Shown piece after piece: positions 20,617-27,291 of a DNA stretch of 64,000 bases (its first letter is position 1; the number at the start of each line of letters is the position of its first letter). This DNA comes from Candidatus Nealsonbacteria bacterium (GTDB lineage Bacteria; Patescibacteriota; Minisyncoccia; Minisyncoccales; JANBVM01), in assembly GCA_026016225.1 (NCBI GenBank), contig CP061210.1:194000-257999 (forward strand). Direction: 5' to 3'. Position numbers and translations under genes: made by a program. The notes beneath the pieces were generated by a model. The model had not been told where the DNA came from. It saw nothing but the letters and a program-made list of their open reading frames with translations, and ran no database searches.

Positions 20617-22398
20617 ATGAACAATCTCAAAATTGCCAAAATATTTTATATGATTGCAGAATATTTGGAAATGGAAGAAGACCCTTTTAGACCCCAAGCT
20701 TATAAAAAAGCAGCTTTTACTTTAGAGAACATGGAAGAAGATGTTGGAGAGATTTACAAAAGAGAGGGGACAAAGGGACTGAAAAAAATCCCCGGAGTAG
20801 GAGAAGGAATTGCTTCAAAAATTGTAGAATACTTAAAAGTTGGAAAAGTAAAATACTATGAAAAACTGAAGAAAAAAGCCCCGGTTGATGTGGAAGAACT
20901 TACTGCTGTTGAGGGAATGGGACCAAAGAGAATTAAGATATTGTATAAAGAGTTAGGAATCAGAAACATCAAAGATTTAGAGAAAGCAGTCAAATTACAT
21001 AAAATTGCTCCATTATTTGGCTTTGGTGAGAAAACCGAGAGAAATATTTTAGAAGGAATTGAGTTTTTAAAAAAAAGTAAAGGTAGATTTTTATTGGGAG
21101 AGATTTTACCTGCAGCAAAAGAGATTTACGAGAAATTGAAAAATTTAAAAGAGGTTGAAAAAATTACTATTGTAGGTTCTTTAAGAAGAATGAAAGAAAC
21201 TATTGGTGATATTGATTTTTTAATCACTGTTAAAGGATCTAAAAAATCCGCCTTAGCTAAAGCTTCAGCAAATAAGATAATGGATTTTTTTGTTTCTCTG
21301 CCAGATATTGTCAAGCTCTGGGGGAAAGGACCTACAAAATCATCTGTAAGAATGAGGCAAGGTTTTGATGTGGATATCAGGGTTATTCCGGCTGAAAGCT
21401 ATGGAGCAGCTCTTCAGTATTTTACAGGCTCAAAAGAACATAATATTATTACAAGAAAAATTGCTATTGCTAAGGGTTTAAAATTGAATGAATATGGGTT
21501 GTTTCGGGGTTCTAAAATGCTCGCTGGAAAAAATGAAGAAAAGATATATGAAATCTTGGGTATGCAATGGATTCCACCTGAATTGAGGGAAGACCGGGGA
21601 GAAATTGAAGCAGCTCTTAAAGGAAAATTACCTGTATTAATTGAAAAAAAAGATATCAGAGGTGATTTGCATTGTCATTCAAATTGGGATGGAGGAGAAC
21701 ATTCAATTTTAGAAATGGCAAAAAAAGCAATGGAAATGCATTATGACTATTTAGGGATTTCAGACCATACAAAATTTTTAAGGATAGAAAATGGTTTGAA
21801 TGAAAAACAGTTATCCCAGCAAAGAAAAGAAATTGATGAATTAAATTCAAAATTCAAAATCAACCCTACGGGGAGTCGTAGGCGACAACAAAATTCAAAA
21901 TTTAGAATATTACAGGGAGCAGAAACAAATATTTTAAACGATGGCTCAATTGATATTAATGATACTGCTTTAAAGAAATTGGATTATGCTATTGCTGGAA
22001 TTCACTCCAATTTTAAGATGACAAAAGCAAAAATGACAGAGAGAATAATTCGGGCAATGAAAAACCCAAATATTAATATTATTTCTCATCCTACGGGAAG
22101 ATTGTTAAAGAGAAGAGAAGAATACCAGATTGATTTTGATAAAATCTTGAGGGCAGCTAAGGAATTTAGTGTTGTCTTAGAAATCAATTCTTTTCCTTTA
22201 AGATTAGATTTAAATGACCAGCATATTAGGCGATGCAAGGAGGCGGGAGTAAAAATGGTAATTAATACTGATTCCCATCATAAAAACCAGATGAGATATA
22301 TAGAATTAGGAGTAGCTCAAGCGCGCCGGGGCTGGGCTGAGAAAAAAGATATTATTAATACTCAATCTATAGATAAATTATTAAAATATTTTAAATAG
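20617..22398 (+). CDS. polX: family X DNA polymerase with a C-terminal PHP domain (PolX)
   Basis: 593 aa. HhH motifs (IPGVGEGIASKI, VEGMGPKRI), the Pol-beta-like core GSLRRMKETIGDIDFL, and a PHP domain (DLHCHSNWDGGEH ... NTDSHH). Confidence 0.8.
   Translation: MNNLKIAKIFYMIAEYLEMEEDPFRPQAYKKAAFTLENMEEDVGEIYKREGTKGLKKIPGVGEGIASKIVEYLKVGKVKYYEKLKKKAPVDVEELTAVEGMGPKRIKILYKELGIRNIKDLEKAVKLHKIAPLFGFGEKTERNILEGIEFLKKSKGRFLLGEILPAAKEIYEKLKNLKEVEKITIVGSLRRMKETIGDIDFLITVKGSKKSALAKASANKIMDFFVSLPDIVKLWGKGPTKSSVRMRQGFDVDIRVIPAESYGAALQYFTGSKEHNIITRKIAIAKGLKLNEYGLFRGSKMLAGKNEEKIYEILGMQWIPPELREDRGEIEAALKGKLPVLIEKKDIRGDLHCHSNWDGGEHSILEMAKKAMEMHYDYLGISDHTKFLRIENGLNEKQLSQQRKEIDELNSKFKINPTGSRRRQQNSKFRILQGAETNILNDGSIDINDTALKKLDYAIAGIHSNFKMTKAKMTERIIRAMKNPNINIISHPTGRLLKRREEYQIDFDKILRAAKEFSVVLEINSFPLRLDLNDQHIRRCKEAGVKMVINTDSHHKNQMRYIELGVAQARRGWAEKKDIINTQSIDKLLKYFK
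21848..21901. repeat. GC-rich hairpin insert flanked by 13-bp direct repeats, in frame in polX
   Basis: CAAAATTCAAAAT (21848-21860) and an identical copy (21889-21901) flank caaCCCTACGgggagtCGTAGGcgacaa. Stem CCTACG (21865-21870) / CGTAGG (21877-21882). Confidence 0.65.
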
Positions 22399-22399
22399 T

Positions 22400-22453
22400 A
22401 TGTTTTTGGAAAGATCGGCAGGAGCTGTAGTTTTTAGAAAAGAAAAAAAGGTA
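22400..22453 (+). pseudogene. possible N-terminal remnant of a Nudix hydrolase gene
   Basis: ATG at 22400, right after the polX stop, encodes MFLERSAGAVVFRKEKKV. E.SAGAVVFR is a common Nudix N-terminus. The frame then runs through a terminator and antisense into rplT without a Nudix box. Confidence 0.2.
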
Positions 22454-22461
22454 AAAAACCC

Positions 22462-22496
22462 CAAAAAGCCATCTTTTAAATGGCTATTTTTTTTAA
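22462..22496. terminator. bidirectional terminator between polX and rplT
   Basis: AGCCAT-cttttaa-ATGGCT hairpin with an A-run upstream and a T-run downstream. Confidence 0.65.
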
Positions 22497-22507
22497 GAAA
22501 AAGTCTT

Positions 22508-22855
22508 TTAACTTTTTACCTTCTCGAGAATTTTTTCAAAGATTTTAGGATGTTTCCTTGCCAATTCTGACAAAACCTTTCTATCAAGCTCAATTTTATT
22601 TTTCTTTAAACTATTAATAAACCTACTATAAGAGATTCCTTTTTCCCGGCAGGCGGCATTAATCTGTATTTGCCAGAGAGCTCTAAAATTTCTTTTTTTC
22701 TTTTTTCTATCTACATAAGCGTGAGCCCAGGCATGAAACAAAGCATCTTTTGCCAAGCGATACTTTGATTTTCTTCCCCACATGAATCCTTTTGTTAGCT
22801 TCAGAATCCTTTTTCTTTTTTTATGAGAGGTTGTGCCTCGCTTTACTCTAACCAT
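22508..22855 (-). CDS. rplT: 50S ribosomal protein L20
   Basis: MVRVKRGTTSHKKRKRILKLTKGF...YVDRKKKKRNFRALWQIQINAA is a canonical L20 sequence. Confidence 0.95.
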   Translation of the reverse strand: MVRVKRGTTSHKKRKRILKLTKGFMWGRKSKYRLAKDALFHAWAHAYVDRKKKKRNFRALWQIQINAACREKGISYSRFINSLKKNKIELDRKVLSELARKHPKIFEKILEKVKS

Positions 22856-22871
22856 AAATTTCTATGAGTTT

Positions 22872-23057
22872 CTAAGAACGTAGTAACTTTTTTATTTTTT
22901 TTGCTTCAGGTTTTGATAATTCAACCAATTTTCGTTTTTTTCTTTTCGTTTTCCCTGATTTTTTTGCCAAGTAATGGTCAATACCGGTCTGTCGTCTTAA
23001 GACCTTGCCTGTCCTGGTTATTTTGAAACGTTTTTGAATAGATTTTCTTATTCCCAT
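22872..23057 (-). CDS. rpmI: 50S ribosomal protein L35
   Basis: 61 aa. KRFKITRTGKVLRRQTG..H.L.KKS is the L35 pattern. It sits in the conserved infC-rpmI-rplT order. Confidence 0.9.
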   Translation of the reverse strand: MGIRKSIQKRFKITRTGKVLRRQTGIDHYLAKKSGKTKRKKRKLVELSKPEAKKIKKLLRS

Positions 23058-23065
23058 ATTTTCCT

Positions 23066-23584
23066 TTATTTGTTTTCTTCTTTACTGATGGAAATAATTA
23101 CTATGAATCCATTTACTTTTCTCTTTATTTCACTTTCAGTTTTTATTGAAATTCTTTTTCCTAAATCCTCAATGAACTTTTTTAATTTTTCTTTTGCAAA
23201 TCCAGAGAGTCTTTTTTCTCTACCCCTTAAAATCATTTCTATTTTTACCTTATTTCCTTTCTTTAAAAATTTCTCTGCCTGAAGAATTCTTGTTTCCAAA
23301 TCGTGTGGGGATATATTAAATCTTAACCTTATTCCTTTTATTTCGATAGTTTTTTTAACCCCCTTTTCCTTTTTCTGCAAGCGGTAGAGATATTTTCCAT
23401 AATTCAATATTTTACAAACAGGTGGATCTATTTTTTCTGTAACCTGGATTAAATCTAAATTACGCTCCCTTGCCATCTGGAGCGCTTTTTCTAAATCAAT
23501 AATCCCTATCTGCTTCCCGGCATCATCAATCAATCTGACTTTTTGAGCTCTTATTCGATTGTTGATTAATGGTTTTTTTATCAA
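23066..23584 (-). CDS. infC: translation initiation factor IF-3 (non-AUG start)
   Basis: INNRIRAQKVRLIDDAGKQIGIIDLEKALQMARERNLDLIQV is a canonical IF3 N-domain. The only available start codons are TTG (23582-23584) or ATA (23579-23581). Confidence 0.9.
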   Translation of the reverse strand: MIKKPLINNRIRAQKVRLIDDAGKQIGIIDLEKALQMARERNLDLIQVTEKIDPPVCKILNYGKYLYRLQKKEKGVKKTIEIKGIRLRFNISPHDLETRILQAEKFLKKGNKVKIEMILRGREKRLSGFAKEKLKKFIEDLGKRISIKTESEIKRKVNGFIVIISISKEENK

Positions 23585-23591
23585 GTTTTTG

Positions 23592-23929
23592 TGGAGGTGG
23601 CGAGCGCGAACTCGCGTCCAAAAATTGTTTCTAAGATAATTCTACAAGCTTATTCCAATTAAAGAATAACAGAAAATTCAAATTGGACAAAACTTTTCTG
23701 TGTTTGGTCTGTTTTTTTTCGATAGTTTCTTTAGACCTTAAAAACTATCTATCTCGATATATGACACCTACCTTATTTATCGAGAATCAGTAAAGCAGAT
23801 GGCATTAAGCGTAAGCTAATGCAGGTTCTTGAAATAAGTTGGCACTTATTTTTCTCTCAAAGTTTACGAGATTTGAGAATACTCGACTTGCCTATCTTAG
23901 TTAAATTTCTGTCGAAACTTTTCACCCCC
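23592..23929 (-). ncRNA. ssrA: tmRNA (SsrA)
   Basis: 5' end GGGGGTGAAAAGTTTCGACAG. 3' end GGACGCGAGTTCGCGCTCGCCACCTCCA. The 7-bp acceptor stem includes G3:U. Tag ORF is GCC AAC TTA TTT CAA GAA CCT GCA TTA GCT TAC GCT TAA, giving ANLFQEPALAYA (plus-strand 23805-23843). CCA is not encoded. Confidence 0.85.
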
Positions 23930-24365
23930 GCAGAGTTCTCCTTATTTCTCTTTCAACTTCTCTTTTTTTAATTAACTCTCTTTTATCAAACTTTTTCTTT
24001 CCTTTAGCGATAGCAATCTCCAATTTTATTTTTCCCCTTATACTATAAACCCTTAGAGGCACAATTGTCAAACCCTTTTGTTTTGTTTTTCCAATTAAAT
24101 ACTTAATTTCAGACTTTTTAAGTAAAAGCTTTCTTGTTCTTTCAGGATTATAATCTTTAGGCGCATTTTTTGGTTGATAAGGAGGAATATTAGCTCCAAT
24201 TAAAAAAACCTCTTCATCTTTCAATACCACATAGGTCCCCTGAAGACTTATTCTTCCTGATTTTATTGATTTTACTTCCTGTCCAATCAAAGAAATGCCA
24301 GCTCTAAACCTTTCTAAGATTTCATAGTTAAAGTAAGCCTTTTTGTTTTTAGTAATCTCTTTCAT
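23922..24365 (-). CDS. smpB: SsrA-binding protein SmpB
   Basis: 147 aa. NKKAYFNYEILERFRAGISLIGQEVKSI... and the C-terminal basic tail are canonical SmpB. Confidence 0.9.
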   Translation of the reverse strand: MKEITKNKKAYFNYEILERFRAGISLIGQEVKSIKSGRISLQGTYVVLKDEEVFLIGANIPPYQPKNAPKDYNPERTRKLLLKKSEIKYLIGKTKQKGLTIVPLRVYSIRGKIKLEIAIAKGKKKFDKRELIKKREVEREIRRTLRG

Positions 24366-24404
24366 TCTTTGATTTTAGCAGAAAAATTAGATAAGCTAAA
24401 ACTA

Positions 24405-25685
24405 ATGAGAAAAAATAGCAGAATTCCAGAATTTTTCAAGTTAAAGAGAAAAGGAAAAATCAAAATTGTAAAAAATTTCGCTAATTTAACTGATAAAGAA
24501 ATTAAAATAATTGAGAAAGGATTTTTAGAGCCAGAAATAAGAGATAAAATAATAGAAAACGTTATTGGGACATTTCCTCTTCCATACGCTATTGCTGTAA
24601 ACTTTTTAATTAACCAGAAAGATTATCTTGTGCCAATGGTTATTGAAGAACCTTCTGTAGTAGCTGCCGCTTGTTATGGAGCAAGATTAACAAGAGAAAG
24701 CGGGGGAATATTTGCCAAAAGTTTAGGAAATTTGATGATAGGTCAAATTTATATAATTGATCTAAAAAATCCTCAAAGAGCTAAAAAAAAGATATTAAAA
24801 GAAAAAAAAGAAATTTTAAAAATTGCCAATAGACAAAACCCCATTTTGACAGAATTGGGAGGAGGGGCAAAGGATTTAGAAACAAAAATATTTAAAAAAA
24901 CAAAAATCGGTCCAATTCTAAGAATTCATCTATTAATTGATACTAAAGATGCCATGGGAGCTAATACGGTGGATACGATGGTTGAACAAACAGCTCCCTT
25001 TATTGAAAAAATTATAGGCGAGAAAGTTCTTTTGAAAATAGTTTCCAATTTAGCTGAAAAAAGATTGGTGGAGGTAAAGACAATAGTAACAAAAAAAGCT
25101 TTAAAAAAAGAAGGTTTTCCTCCTGAAGAAACAATTCAAAAAATTGTCAAAGCTCAAGTTTTAGCCGAAACTGATATTTACCGGGCAGTGACTAATAATA
25201 AAGGAATTTTAAACGGGATGGGAGCAGTAGCTTTGGCTACTGGAAATGACTGGCGAGCGCTTGAAGCCGGAGCTCACGGTTTTGCAGCAAAATCAGGAAA
25301 ATATAAACCTCTGGCTGTCTGGAGAAAAAATAAAGAAGGAAATTTAACTGGCAAAATGACAGTTCCCATAGCAGTTGGTATAGTAGGAGGTATAACCCAG
25401 GTTCATCCAACAGCCAGAATTTCCTTAAAGATTTTAAAAGTAAAATCAGCTCAAGAATTAGCCCAGGTAATAGCTTCTGTAGGTTTGGTTCAAAATTTGG
25501 CAGCTTTAAGAGCTTTGGTTTCAGAAGGAATTCAGTCAGGCCATATGAAATTGCATGTCAGGAACATAGCCATGGCAGTGGGAGCTAAAGGGAAAACAGT
25601 TGATAAAATAGCTAAACAGATGGTTAAAGAGAAAAAAATCAACATTGAAAGAGCTAAGGAGATTTTTGAGCAATTTAAGAAATAA
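24405..25685 (+). CDS. mvaA: hydroxymethylglutaryl-CoA reductase, class II
   Basis: EEPSVVAAACYGARL, DAMGANTVDTM and GHMKLHVRN blocks fit a class II HMGR of about 426 aa. ATG 24405 (MRKNSRIPEFFKL) is preferred. The track start TTG 24369 is only 4 nt from the smpB start. Confidence 0.8.
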   Translation: MRKNSRIPEFFKLKRKGKIKIVKNFANLTDKEIKIIEKGFLEPEIRDKIIENVIGTFPLPYAIAVNFLINQKDYLVPMVIEEPSVVAAACYGARLTRESGGIFAKSLGNLMIGQIYIIDLKNPQRAKKKILKEKKEILKIANRQNPILTELGGGAKDLETKIFKKTKIGPILRIHLLIDTKDAMGANTVDTMVEQTAPFIEKIIGEKVLLKIVSNLAEKRLVEVKTIVTKKALKKEGFPPEETIQKIVKAQVLAETDIYRAVTNNKGILNGMGAVALATGNDWRALEAGAHGFAAKSGKYKPLAVWRKNKEGNLTGKMTVPIAVGIVGGITQVHPTARISLKILKVKSAQELAQVIASVGLVQNLAALRALVSEGIQSGHMKLHVRNIAMAVGAKGKTVDKIAKQMVKEKKINIERAKEIFEQFKK

Positions 25686-25689
25686 ATTT

Positions 25690-27291
25690 ATGGTGAGAAA
25701 AAAACTAATAAATTTAATTAAGAAATCAATAAAGAATCTTCAAAAAGAGGGAGTTTTTCCAAAATTTGATATTCTTGAAATTCAAATTGAACATCCGGAA
25801 AAGAGAATTTATGGTGATTATGCAACAAGTGTTGCTTTAAAAATTGGAAAAATTTTGAAAAAAAAGCCAATGGAAACAGCAGAAAATCTTAAATCTCAAA
25901 TTCTAAATCTCAAACCTGATTTATTAAAAAAGATTGAAGCAGTTAGACCAGGATTTATTAATTTTTTTCTTTCTGATAAATATCTACAAGAACAAGTCGG
26001 TAAAATTTTAAAAGAAAAAGAAAAGTTTGGGGAATTAAAAATAGGTAGAAATAAAAAAGTTCAGGTAGAATTTATTTCTGCTAATCCAACAGGACCTTTA
26101 ACTTTAGGAAATGGTCGAGGGGGATTTTGTGGAGATGTTTTAGCAAATGTTTTGACCAAAACAGGATACAAAGTAGAACGGGAATATTATATCAATGATA
26201 TTGGAGAACAAATAAAAAAATTAGGACACTCAGTTATCGGCGACCCCGAAGGAGTATATAAAGGTAAATATATTGATAATTTAAGAGGAAAGATAAAAGG
26301 AAATAATCCGTATGAGGTTGGACAGAAAGCAGCGAAAATTATTTTAAAAGAGATGATAAAACCTTCGGTTAAAAAAATGGGAATAAAATTTGATGTCTGG
26401 TTTTCGGAGAAAAGTTTAGAGAAGAATAAAGAGATAGATAAAGCCTTAAAATTGCTAAAAAAGAAGAAATTCACTTATGAAAAAGATGGGGCTTTATGGT
26501 TTAAATCAAGTAAATTTGGCGATGATAAAGATAGGGTTTTAGTAAGGTCAAACAATGAAAAAACCTATTTTGCTTCTGATATATCTTATTTAAAAAATAA
26601 ATTTAAGAGAAAATTTAATTATATTATTTATTTTTGGGGAGCTGACCATTATGGTTATGTTAACAGAATAAAAGCAGCAGCTGAAGCTTTAGGTTATAAA
26701 AAAGAGCAGGTGAAAATTATTATCATGCAGATGGTAAAACTTTTTAAGGGAGGCAAAGAGATTAGAATGTCTAAGAGAACAGGTACTTATGTTGTTTTAG
26801 ATGAATTAATTGATGAGGTAGGATTAGATGCAGCCAGGTTTTTCTTCTTAGAGAGAAATCCAGAAAGTCATTTGAATTTTGATTTGAGTTTAGCAAAAGA
26901 ACAATCAGAGAAAAACCCGGTTTATTATATTCAATATGCTCACGCCAGAATATGTAGCATTATGAGAAAGTTAAAAGTTAAAAGTTTAAAATTAAAAATT
27001 AAAAATCAGGATTTAAAACTATTAAGTCATCCAAGCGAATTAGCTTTAATTAAGCAACTCATTCGTTTTCCAGAAATTATTGAAGACACTGCAAAAGATT
27101 ATCAAGTACAAAGGATACCCCAATATGCTGTTGAGTTAGCTTCAGTCTTTCATCGATTTTATCGAGATTGTAAGGTAATAGTGGAAGATGATGATTTAAA
27201 GAAAGCAAGAATTTCTTTGATTACAGCCACTAAGATTGTCTTGAAAAATACTTTAGATTTAATGGGAATTTCAGCGCCAGAAAAGATGTAA
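25690..27291 (+). CDS. argS: arginyl-tRNA synthetase
   Basis: Class I signatures SANPTGPLTLGNGRG (HIGH-equivalent) and MSKRTG (KMSK), plus a C-terminal DALR-type anticodon-binding domain. ATG 25690 is preferred over the overlapping track start at 25645. Confidence 0.9.
   Translation: MVRKKLINLIKKSIKNLQKEGVFPKFDILEIQIEHPEKRIYGDYATSVALKIGKILKKKPMETAENLKSQILNLKPDLLKKIEAVRPGFINFFLSDKYLQEQVGKILKEKEKFGELKIGRNKKVQVEFISANPTGPLTLGNGRGGFCGDVLANVLTKTGYKVEREYYINDIGEQIKKLGHSVIGDPEGVYKGKYIDNLRGKIKGNNPYEVGQKAAKIILKEMIKPSVKKMGIKFDVWFSEKSLEKNKEIDKALKLLKKKKFTYEKDGALWFKSSKFGDDKDRVLVRSNNEKTYFASDISYLKNKFKRKFNYIIYFWGADHYGYVNRIKAAAEALGYKKEQVKIIIMQMVKLFKGGKEIRMSKRTGTYVVLDELIDEVGLDAARFFFLERNPESHLNFDLSLAKEQSEKNPVYYIQYAHARICSIMRKLKVKSLKLKIKNQDLKLLSHPSELALIKQLIRFPEIIEDTAKDYQVQRIPQYAVELASVFHRFYRDCKVIVEDDDLKKARISLITATKIVLKNTLDLMGISAPEKM

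Follow-up and report, generated by a model that had tools for sequence, protein, structure and literature searches.

When a transfer-messenger RNA (tmRNA) gene begins before the preceding protein gene has ended, two questions arise: from which promoter is the tmRNA transcribed, and what becomes of the message of the protein gene once the tmRNA is cut out of it? We addressed these questions at a locus of Candidatus Nealsonbacteria bacterium (GenBank assembly GCA_026016225.1), within a stretch of 64,000 nucleotides (nt), positions 194,000 to 257,999 of contig CP061210.1, that was analysed as a whole and is called the window hereafter. On its minus strand smpB, the tmRNA gene ssrA, infC (initiation factor IF3), rpmI (ribosomal protein L35) and rplT (L20) form a compacted cluster of a Parcubacteria genome (Patescibacteria, also known as the Candidate Phyla Radiation, CPR), in which ssrA contains the stop codon of smpB and lies directly before infC. 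We consider it rather probable that a promoter embedded in smpB drives a tmRNA-infC-rpmI-rplT precursor which is processed at both tmRNA ends, and that the overlap with smpB is mainly tolerated. All coordinates below refer to the window, and all features lie on its minus strand unless stated otherwise.

The smpB coding sequence (23922..24365 in the list of open reading frames, ORFs; 147 amino acids) ends in CTG CGG GGG TGA, and its TGA stop codon (23924-23922) is located inside the tmRNA gene. Residues 4-146 of the protein align with positions 1-142 of the 143 positions of Pfam PF01668 (E 9.3e-53), a full-length match that includes the C-terminal tail region. For ssrA, an Infernal search with Rfam model RF00023 returned 23929..23589 (133.5 bits with a gathering score of 47, E 4.9e-52, model positions 1-374); the mature tmRNA without CCA occupies 23592..23929, with G1 at 23929 and the discriminator A at 23592. 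By their ORF and Infernal ends the two genes share the 8 nt GGGGGTGA (23922..23929), and U6-G7-A8 of the tmRNA doubles as the smpB stop codon. A first-pass annotation of this DNA had placed the tmRNA 5' end at 23929 with an 8-nt overlap that included the stop codon, had paired GGGGGTG with CACCTCC including a G3:U pair, and had put the 3' end at 23592, 7 nt before infC. All of this was confirmed: the Infernal 5' end does not lie downstream of the smpB stop, which ends at 23922, the acceptor stem GGGGGUG (23929-23923)/CACCUCC (23599-23593) forms 7/7 pairs including the G3:U alanine identity pair, and the spacer between discriminator and infC is the 7-nt CAAAAAC (23585..23591).

The comparison with relatives was based on a scan of one genome per species, which gave 80 SmpB loci at 58-81% identity, all from Patescibacteria metagenome-assembled genomes labelled Parcubacteria, Nealsonbacteria, Paceibacterota, Staskawiczbacteria, Wildermuthbacteria and similar. 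Infernal placed a full-length tmRNA 3' of smpB on the same strand in 76/80 of these loci, a custom end-finder validated on the Infernal matches added L016, and the 77-locus set used below consists of 76 relatives and the window. A sister clade was drawn from metagenomes with the most divergent SmpB (L071) as the query. There the strict end-finder overlooked tmRNAs with a U-U acceptor mismatch, and Infernal, run on 9 of the 20 missed loci, recovered six; L125, recovered in this way, has an overlap of -8. Sister-clade tmRNAs with a U6-U mismatch (GGGGAUG/CUUCUCC) are those of L087, L104, L107, L113, L125 and L149, at 73-105 bits with Infernal. In all 77 loci of the main set the acceptor stem pairs 7/7 in six sequence variants, and this covariation fixes the tmRNA ends. 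The tag frame of the window (23805..23843) runs from a GCC resume codon to TAA and encodes ANLFQEPALAYA, a peptide that is resumed at alanine, has a hydrophobic C-terminal end and is closed by a stop codon. Near-identical tags occur in relatives, e.g., ANLFQKPALAYA and ANLFREPALAYA, and most are ANLF[QKR][EKQ]PALAYA-like; such conservation of the tag peptide indicates that the trans-translation system is functional. Longer tags of 20-28 residues (e.g., ANLFSKAKTALSNAFGGGASGLAPVCA), where 12 is usual, were seen in L017, L027, L031, L044, L047, L060, L071, L072 and L078.

Two features of the tmRNA 3' part deviate from textbook form. The T-arm (23600..23615) consists of GCGAG (23615-23611), TTCGCG (23610-23605) and CTCGC (23604-23600), i.e., a 5-bp stem closing a loop of 6 nt where the canonical T-loop has 7 nt, and the suspicion raised at first pass that the loop is one nucleotide short was thus correct. 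A 6-nt loop is found in 31 of the 77 loci; it is a family variant and does not exclude the gene from the tmRNA family. On the native window sequence ARAGORN reported no tmRNA, but after insertion of one base into the T-loop it recognised the gene, placing the 5' end where Infernal does and reading the tag ANLFQEPALAYA; restoring the CCA alone did not rescue detection. The miss is therefore due to the 6-nt T-loop and not to absence of the gene. Across the clade ARAGORN misses 40/77 tmRNAs, detecting 9/31 with a 6-nt loop and 28/45 with a 7-nt loop, so that the short loop together with other lineage deviations costs about half of the clade's tmRNA genes, and pipelines based on this program will annotate these genomes as lacking tmRNA and leave the overlap unseen. 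The second deviation is the 3' end: the triplet after the discriminator A (23592) is CAA and not CCA, and CCA is encoded in only 6/77 loci. The first base after the discriminator is nevertheless C in nearly all 77 loci, CAA being the commonest triplet, which suggests from the sequences that position 74 is under constraint independently of an encoded CCA.

The overlap is not peculiar to the window. Among species-level loci it occurs in 36/69 of the window's clade and in 2/75 of the sister clade (Fisher p 1.7e-12), with median smpB-ssrA gaps of -8 and +65 nt, respectively, for a clade split that was made by locus number and is approximate, since the tree puts L075 into the window's clade and L054 into the outgroup. 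Among the 76 relatives, 35 overlap, and 25 of these have exactly the geometry of the window (NGG GGN TGA), while ten have longer overlaps or other frames (-1, -17, -18, -21, -29, -30); extensions of 17-30 nt occur where the tmRNA lacks UGA at positions 6-8. About 20 further relatives have a gap of 0-14 nt, and in the window's clade as a whole the gap is at most 14 nt in 54/69 loci. Homologues with a TAA stop of their own end at the same residue as the window SmpB. In the window, smpB no longer has a stop codon of its own and ends at the near-universal U6-G7-A8 of the tmRNA, which is why the tmRNA 5' end lies 8 nt within the gene.

While common in the lineage, the overlap is, to judge from sequence comparison, labile. 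On a neighbour-joining SmpB tree of 77 taxa its presence or absence requires 20 Fitch changes, compared with 25.8 after shuffling (p about 0.01), and it often differs between close relatives, as shown by gaps of 0 in L028 and -8 in L041, and of -21, +91 and -8 in L003, L005 and L015, respectively. The frequent changes of state, the continuum of gaps from +14 to -30 and the exposed 3' end that would also result in the 0-14 nt gaps together lead us to favour the view that the overlap is mainly a tolerated by-product of genome compaction. The gaps of L029 (3448-3570) and L034 (3448-3512) share a GC-rich palindromic element, CCCTATAC ... GGGCTCGACAAAGATTT ... AAATCTTTG, and GC-rich hairpins are present in other smpB-ssrA gaps, e.g., those of L004, L054, L046 and L047. 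Insertion of small repeats or mobile elements between smpB and ssrA is a possible origin of this material.

In relatives with smpB-ssrA gaps of 30-370 nt no consistent promoter motif was found in the gap, only the GC-rich hairpins and weak matches, and attention was therefore redirected to the smpB coding region. A candidate sigma70-type promoter lies there within codons 99-108 (24042..24071), with a -35 element TTGACA (24071-24066), an 18-nt spacer and a -10 element TATAGT (24047-24042). It matches the sigma70 consensus (TTGACA and TATAAT, 16-18 nt apart) at 11/12 positions, the best score in a promoter scan of 21500-26000 (4.5 kb). Transcription is predicted to start near 24035, which would leave a leader of about 106 nt ahead of tmRNA G1. 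A weaker candidate, TTGAAA-16-TATTTT (24439..24412, 9/12), lies 5' of smpB. The homologous 30 nt, located through the SmpB alignment, score at least 10/12 in 71/77 loci, and in the sister clade they score 12/12 in 54/80 and at least 11/12 in 76/80 loci, where control regions in the same genes reach best scores of 6-10; in total the motif TTGACN-N18-TATANT is kept in about 150 loci, throughout the class. Of the loci in which the strict end-finder had missed a tmRNA, six extend 660 nt or more beyond smpB, and Infernal located a tmRNA downstream in all six; the predicted promoter thus precedes ssrA in every checkable locus.

The codons that make up the motif are constrained beyond the protein they encode. 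Leu99 is TTG in 73/75 loci, although TTG accounts for 25% of Leu codons in these genes and Leu101 and Leu104 use TTA, TTG, CTT and CTA freely. Tyr107 is TAT in 77/77 loci, and codon 108 ends in T in 73/77 and is ACT (49), AAT (14), AGT (5) or ATT (3) in 71/77, although the residue itself may be T, N, S or I. Among 134 codon columns that of Leu99 deviates most (binomial 7e-42, uncorrected for phylogeny), codons 107 and 108 are in the top ten, and after the start codon the most invariant third positions of smpB are those of codons 107, 108 and 99. Such constraint on synonymous sites points to DNA and not to protein as its object, and on these comparative grounds ssrA probably has its own promoter inside smpB. 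Further synonymous outliers were seen in smpB outside the promoter, namely Leu81 (CTT, 47/77), Val31 (GTA, 48/76) and Leu17 (CTG, 31/69), and Ile113 (ATA) and Lys114 (AAG) are outliers directly downstream of the predicted transcription start.

At its other end ssrA leads directly into infC (23066..23584, 172 amino acids), in which both IF3 domains are present (IF3_N, PF05198, 2.6e-28; IF3_C, PF00707, 2e-18). infC follows ssrA on the same strand in 63/67 evaluable loci of the window's clade compared with 6/58 in the sister sets. The spacer between discriminator and infC is 2-35 nt in most loci, at most 12 nt in about 21, and only 2-3 nt in L042, L048, L064, L065, L069 and L070. In a simple scan no promoter-like or terminator-like site was found inside ssrA or in the ssrA-infC spacer, and folding of 23660-23560 recovered the T-arm only (z-score -0.4) and no extra regulatory structure. 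With no such sites and spacers this short, ssrA and infC-rpmI-rplT must be co-transcribed and then processed apart. This upholds part of the proposal made at first pass that smpB-ssrA-infC-rpmI-rplT is one transcription unit; the conserved internal promoter implies, however, that the unit is probably not driven solely from 5' of smpB. It had also been argued that there is no room before infC for a promoter or a Shine-Dalgarno (SD) sequence. For the promoter this holds, in that no promoter-like site was seen there, but absence of an SD sequence carries little weight, as SD-like motifs precede infC in 3/64 loci, rpmI in 6/47, rplT in 6/66 and smpB in 3/78. The missing SD was consequently rejected as a peculiarity of infC, being the norm of the lineage.

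The start codon of infC is a different matter. The first-pass annotation had left it open between TTG and ATA. The TTG (23584-23582) stands and the ATA does not: between the preceding in-frame stop and this TTG the frame contains no further ATG, GTG, TTG, CTG or ATH, homologues can be aligned with the protein from its first codon onwards, and a start at ATA or upstream inside the tmRNA was rejected for want of an in-frame candidate, with homologues aligning from TTG or CTG and codon 2 being unconserved. Across 64 loci the first codon is TTG in about 36, CTG in 10, ATT, ATC or ATA in about 8 and ATG in 3, whereas ATG starts rplT in 65/66 loci, smpB in 67/78 and rpmI in 38/47. From the sequences, this clade-wide avoidance of ATG at infC points to gene-specific control of initiation. 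The translational autoregulation of infC in E. coli is said to act via the atypical AUU start of that gene, reportedly in work by Butler et al. of 1987 and Sussman et al. of 1996, and infC in this clade resembles it in avoiding AUG, unlike its neighbours. However, AUG, GUG and UUG form the class against which E. coli IF3 does not discriminate. The infC of the window begins with UUG and not with a discriminated codon, and membership in the E. coli type of AUU autoregulation is therefore not established here; the suggestion that a non-AUG infC fits IF3 autoregulation survives only as far as the avoidance of ATG goes. The window also differs from E. coli in having no thrS upstream, and no infC is known to follow a tRNA-like domain with so short a leader.

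Taken together, these observations are compatible with the following course of events. The internal smpB promoter would be the main source of both tmRNA and the infC operon transcript, so that the tmRNA would form the 5' part of the infC-rpmI-rplT transcript. The precursor would comprise a leader of about 106 nt, corresponding to smpB codons about 111-147 in the 3' third of the gene, then the tmRNA and then the infC-rpmI-rplT mRNA as its trailer. RNase P would cut at C23930|G23929. At the other end, where the lack of an encoded CCA leads us to infer endonucleolytic processing followed by CCA addition, an RNase Z-type endonuclease would cut after A23592 and CCA would then be added. The resulting infC mRNA would carry the 7-nt A-rich leader CAAAAAC, without an SD, before its UUG start, and since SD motifs are rare in this lineage, its ribosomes presumably handle such SD-less leaders routinely. 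Any transcript from a promoter 5' of smpB would necessarily read into ssrA. That excision of the tmRNA would remove the smpB stop codon, as had been noticed at first pass, holds, because a full-length smpB mRNA must extend into ssrA and a cut at G1 would drop the stop. The message so cut would end in ...CUG C, stopless, and would be a substrate for trans-translation; ribosomes reaching that end would need tmRNA-SmpB, and SmpB minus its last two residues would receive the ANLFQEPALAYA tag. In relatives with gaps of 0-14 nt, the same RNase P cut would also leave an unprotected 3' end beside the stop codon. A negative feedback on SmpB like that on arfA may still arise from the stopless message.

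Several points weigh against this account. Promoter, processing sites and enzymes are predictions, and for promoters in Patescibacteria no experimentally established rules exist. Shared ancestry does not enter the binomial p-values for codon bias, although the saturated neighbouring codons serve as an internal control. The SmpB tree was built from a protein of 147 amino acids and is poorly resolved, and it may overestimate lability. Finally, the account leaves unexplained how ribosomes are recruited to a UUG- or CUG-initiated mRNA with a leader of 2-7 nt, or to one with a folded tRNA-like domain directly 5' of the start.

The strongest competitor holds that the cluster is a single unit transcribed from 5' of smpB and that the overlap was selected: excision would make smpB non-stop, and SmpB would be tagged when trans-translation is ample and escape when it is limiting. 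The geometry does force tmRNA G1-A8 into the smpB mRNA, and the overlap is as frequent within the clade as it is rare outside it (36/69 and 2/75). SmpB is full-length with its C-terminal tail intact, and the loss of two residues (RG) should be harmless. The logic, moreover, is established for arfA (PMC4131195, PMC10107115), and the same feedback has been suggested for Carsonella. The conserved internal promoter, however, frees the tmRNA supply from smpB transcripts, and the escape of untagged SmpB under limiting trans-translation would call for a backup release factor, none of which has been demonstrated. The overlap flips about 20 times among the 77 taxa, with close relatives differing, and gap sizes run continuously from +14 to -30 without one fixed state, and such lability argues against strong selection for feedback. 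Non-stop feedback on smpB would follow logically from the geometry, as already proposed for Carsonella (Hudson et al. 2014, PMC4131195), yet we regard it as unlikely that the overlap is a selected autoregulatory device, and give the whole scenario of a single upstream-driven unit with a selected overlap about one chance in its favour for every few against.

A wider version joins both ends of the tmRNA. Here RNase P maturation would obligatorily make every smpB mRNA non-stop and SmpB homeostatic, the 3' cut would yield a nearly leaderless, IF3-gated infC mRNA, and both the overlap and the abutment would have been selected. In E. coli, IF3 disfavours leaderless and non-canonical starts. If this combination were true, one processed transcript would couple ribosome rescue to translation initiation in this Parcubacteria clade; we think it doubtful, somewhat more so than selection of the overlap by itself.

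It is also possible that the overlap has no consequence at all, in that transcripts from the smpB promoter are seldom processed and smpB mRNA keeps its stop, with nearly all tmRNA coming from the internal promoter. Late formation of the acceptor stem, shielding of the junction by ribosomes or by slow kinetics of RNase P, or extreme rarity of these transcripts could bring this about. The near-consensus internal promoter is indeed strong beside the weak candidate (9/12) 5' of smpB, and by the geometry of the sequence the acceptor stem requires about 340 nt to be transcribed past the stop codon. Against this, a read-through transcript would carry an identical tmRNA fold, nothing is known that would make RNase P leave it uncut, and the two kinds of precursor are indistinguishable in sequence downstream of 24035. 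We judge this reading improbable, a little below the combined one.

That the overlap is only apparent, through wrong gene ends, mis-assembly or a recoded TGA, might be read from the failure of ARAGORN to call the gene and from the recoding of UGA in some CPR lineages, but it is effectively refuted by the full-length Infernal match, the acceptor-stem covariation in 77 loci, the identical junction in 25 independent assemblies and the homologues with TAA stops that end at the same residue, and read-through would only lengthen the overlap. Recoding of UGA was rejected for the window itself, where TGA ends 6/42 long ORFs and dropping it as a stop merges few of them.

The closest known parallel to the reading we prefer, a tolerated overlap with an embedded promoter, is the insect symbiont Candidatus Carsonella ruddii, whose smpB/ssrA overlap has been described by Mao et al. 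(2009) and by Hudson, Lau and Williams (2014, PMC4131195), the latter with the non-stop feedback idea. In both cases a same-strand smpB coding sequence ends inside the mature tmRNA, and RNase P maturation should give a non-stop smpB mRNA. However, the Carsonella system is degenerate, with a SmpB that lacks the central loop and C-terminal tail and an ssrA that is decaying in one strain, whereas in the window SmpB and tmRNA are intact and the tag is conserved. Further differences are that roughly one in two of the 69 species-level genomes in this environmental Parcubacteria clade has the overlap, that most of the Parcubacteria cases use the tmRNA's own UGA (positions 6-8) as the stop, and that here the overlap comes together with a promoter embedded in smpB and with an infC that abuts ssrA. 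Hudson et al. stated that the situation is found 'nowhere else but in Carsonella', on the basis of 2031 genome projects, a set that predates the CPR genomes (PMC4131195). Within the limited literature searched, we found no paper reporting that smpB and ssrA overlap in CPR, or that ssrA has a promoter within smpB.

Other systems share parts of the arrangement. The E. coli thrU-tyrU-glyT-thrT-tufB operon is a co-transcript of tRNAs and an mRNA, and it resembles the present cluster in joining a stable RNA with tRNA-like ends to the mRNA of a translation factor downstream, behind a strong promoter and split by tRNA-processing nucleases. It differs in that here the stable RNA is tmRNA, the spacer is mostly 2-35 nt, CCA is unencoded and the promoter lies inside an upstream coding sequence. 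In the case of arfA, an RNase III-truncated non-stop mRNA is regulated by trans-translation, as cited in PMC4131195 and PMC10107115. The likeness is that an endonuclease removes the stop codon of a rescue gene and that the amount of product is inverse to tmRNA-SmpB activity; the smpB product differs in being a component of the tagging system itself, and here it would be RNase P that makes the cut, at the tmRNA fold.

The component genes are all well known, and the regulatory idea is already published. What the locus adds is, firstly, that the smpB/ssrA overlap, which had been thought a Carsonella one-off, is common in a large environmental radiation with otherwise intact trans-translation, and the published statement on its rarity is thereby corrected. 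The natural gap variants from +14 to -30 nt can be used to ask whether self-targeting of smpB mRNA matters. Secondly, the predicted promoter in the smpB codons would be a clear and statistically strong case of coding sequence under dual constraint, and one of the few starting points for a comparative study of promoter architecture among uncultivated Patescibacteria. Thirdly, the tmRNA-infC junction, with its spacer of 2-7 nt, no CCA, no SD and a UUG or CUG start, raises the question of 3' processing and initiation.

Downstream of infC, rpmI (22872..23057; Pfam PF01632, 9.1e-14) and rplT (22508..22855; Pfam PF00453, 3.6e-39) complete the cluster, which likely ends at the hairpin AGCCAT-TTAAAAG-ATGGCT followed by the T-rich TTTTGGGGTTTTTT (22455..22485; assigned to the minus strand by eye). 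The same hairpin is predicted as a plus-strand terminator at 22467-22485 for a convergent plus-strand gene. This gene (20617-22398, plus strand), whose product is a DNA polymerase of family X that includes a PHP domain (593 amino acids), converges on rplT, and the two appear to share a bidirectional terminator hairpin at 22467-22485. On the upstream side an ORF for HMG-CoA reductase (24369-25685, plus strand; Pfam 2.6e-106) is divergent from smpB (24365, minus strand), and a mevalonate-pathway enzyme is noteworthy for a Parcubacteria genome. The longest possible starts of the two genes are 3 nt apart, although the Pfam match of HMG-CoA reductase begins at residue 30, and its true start is probably further inside the ORF. 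The promoter of each gene must overlap the 5' region of the other.

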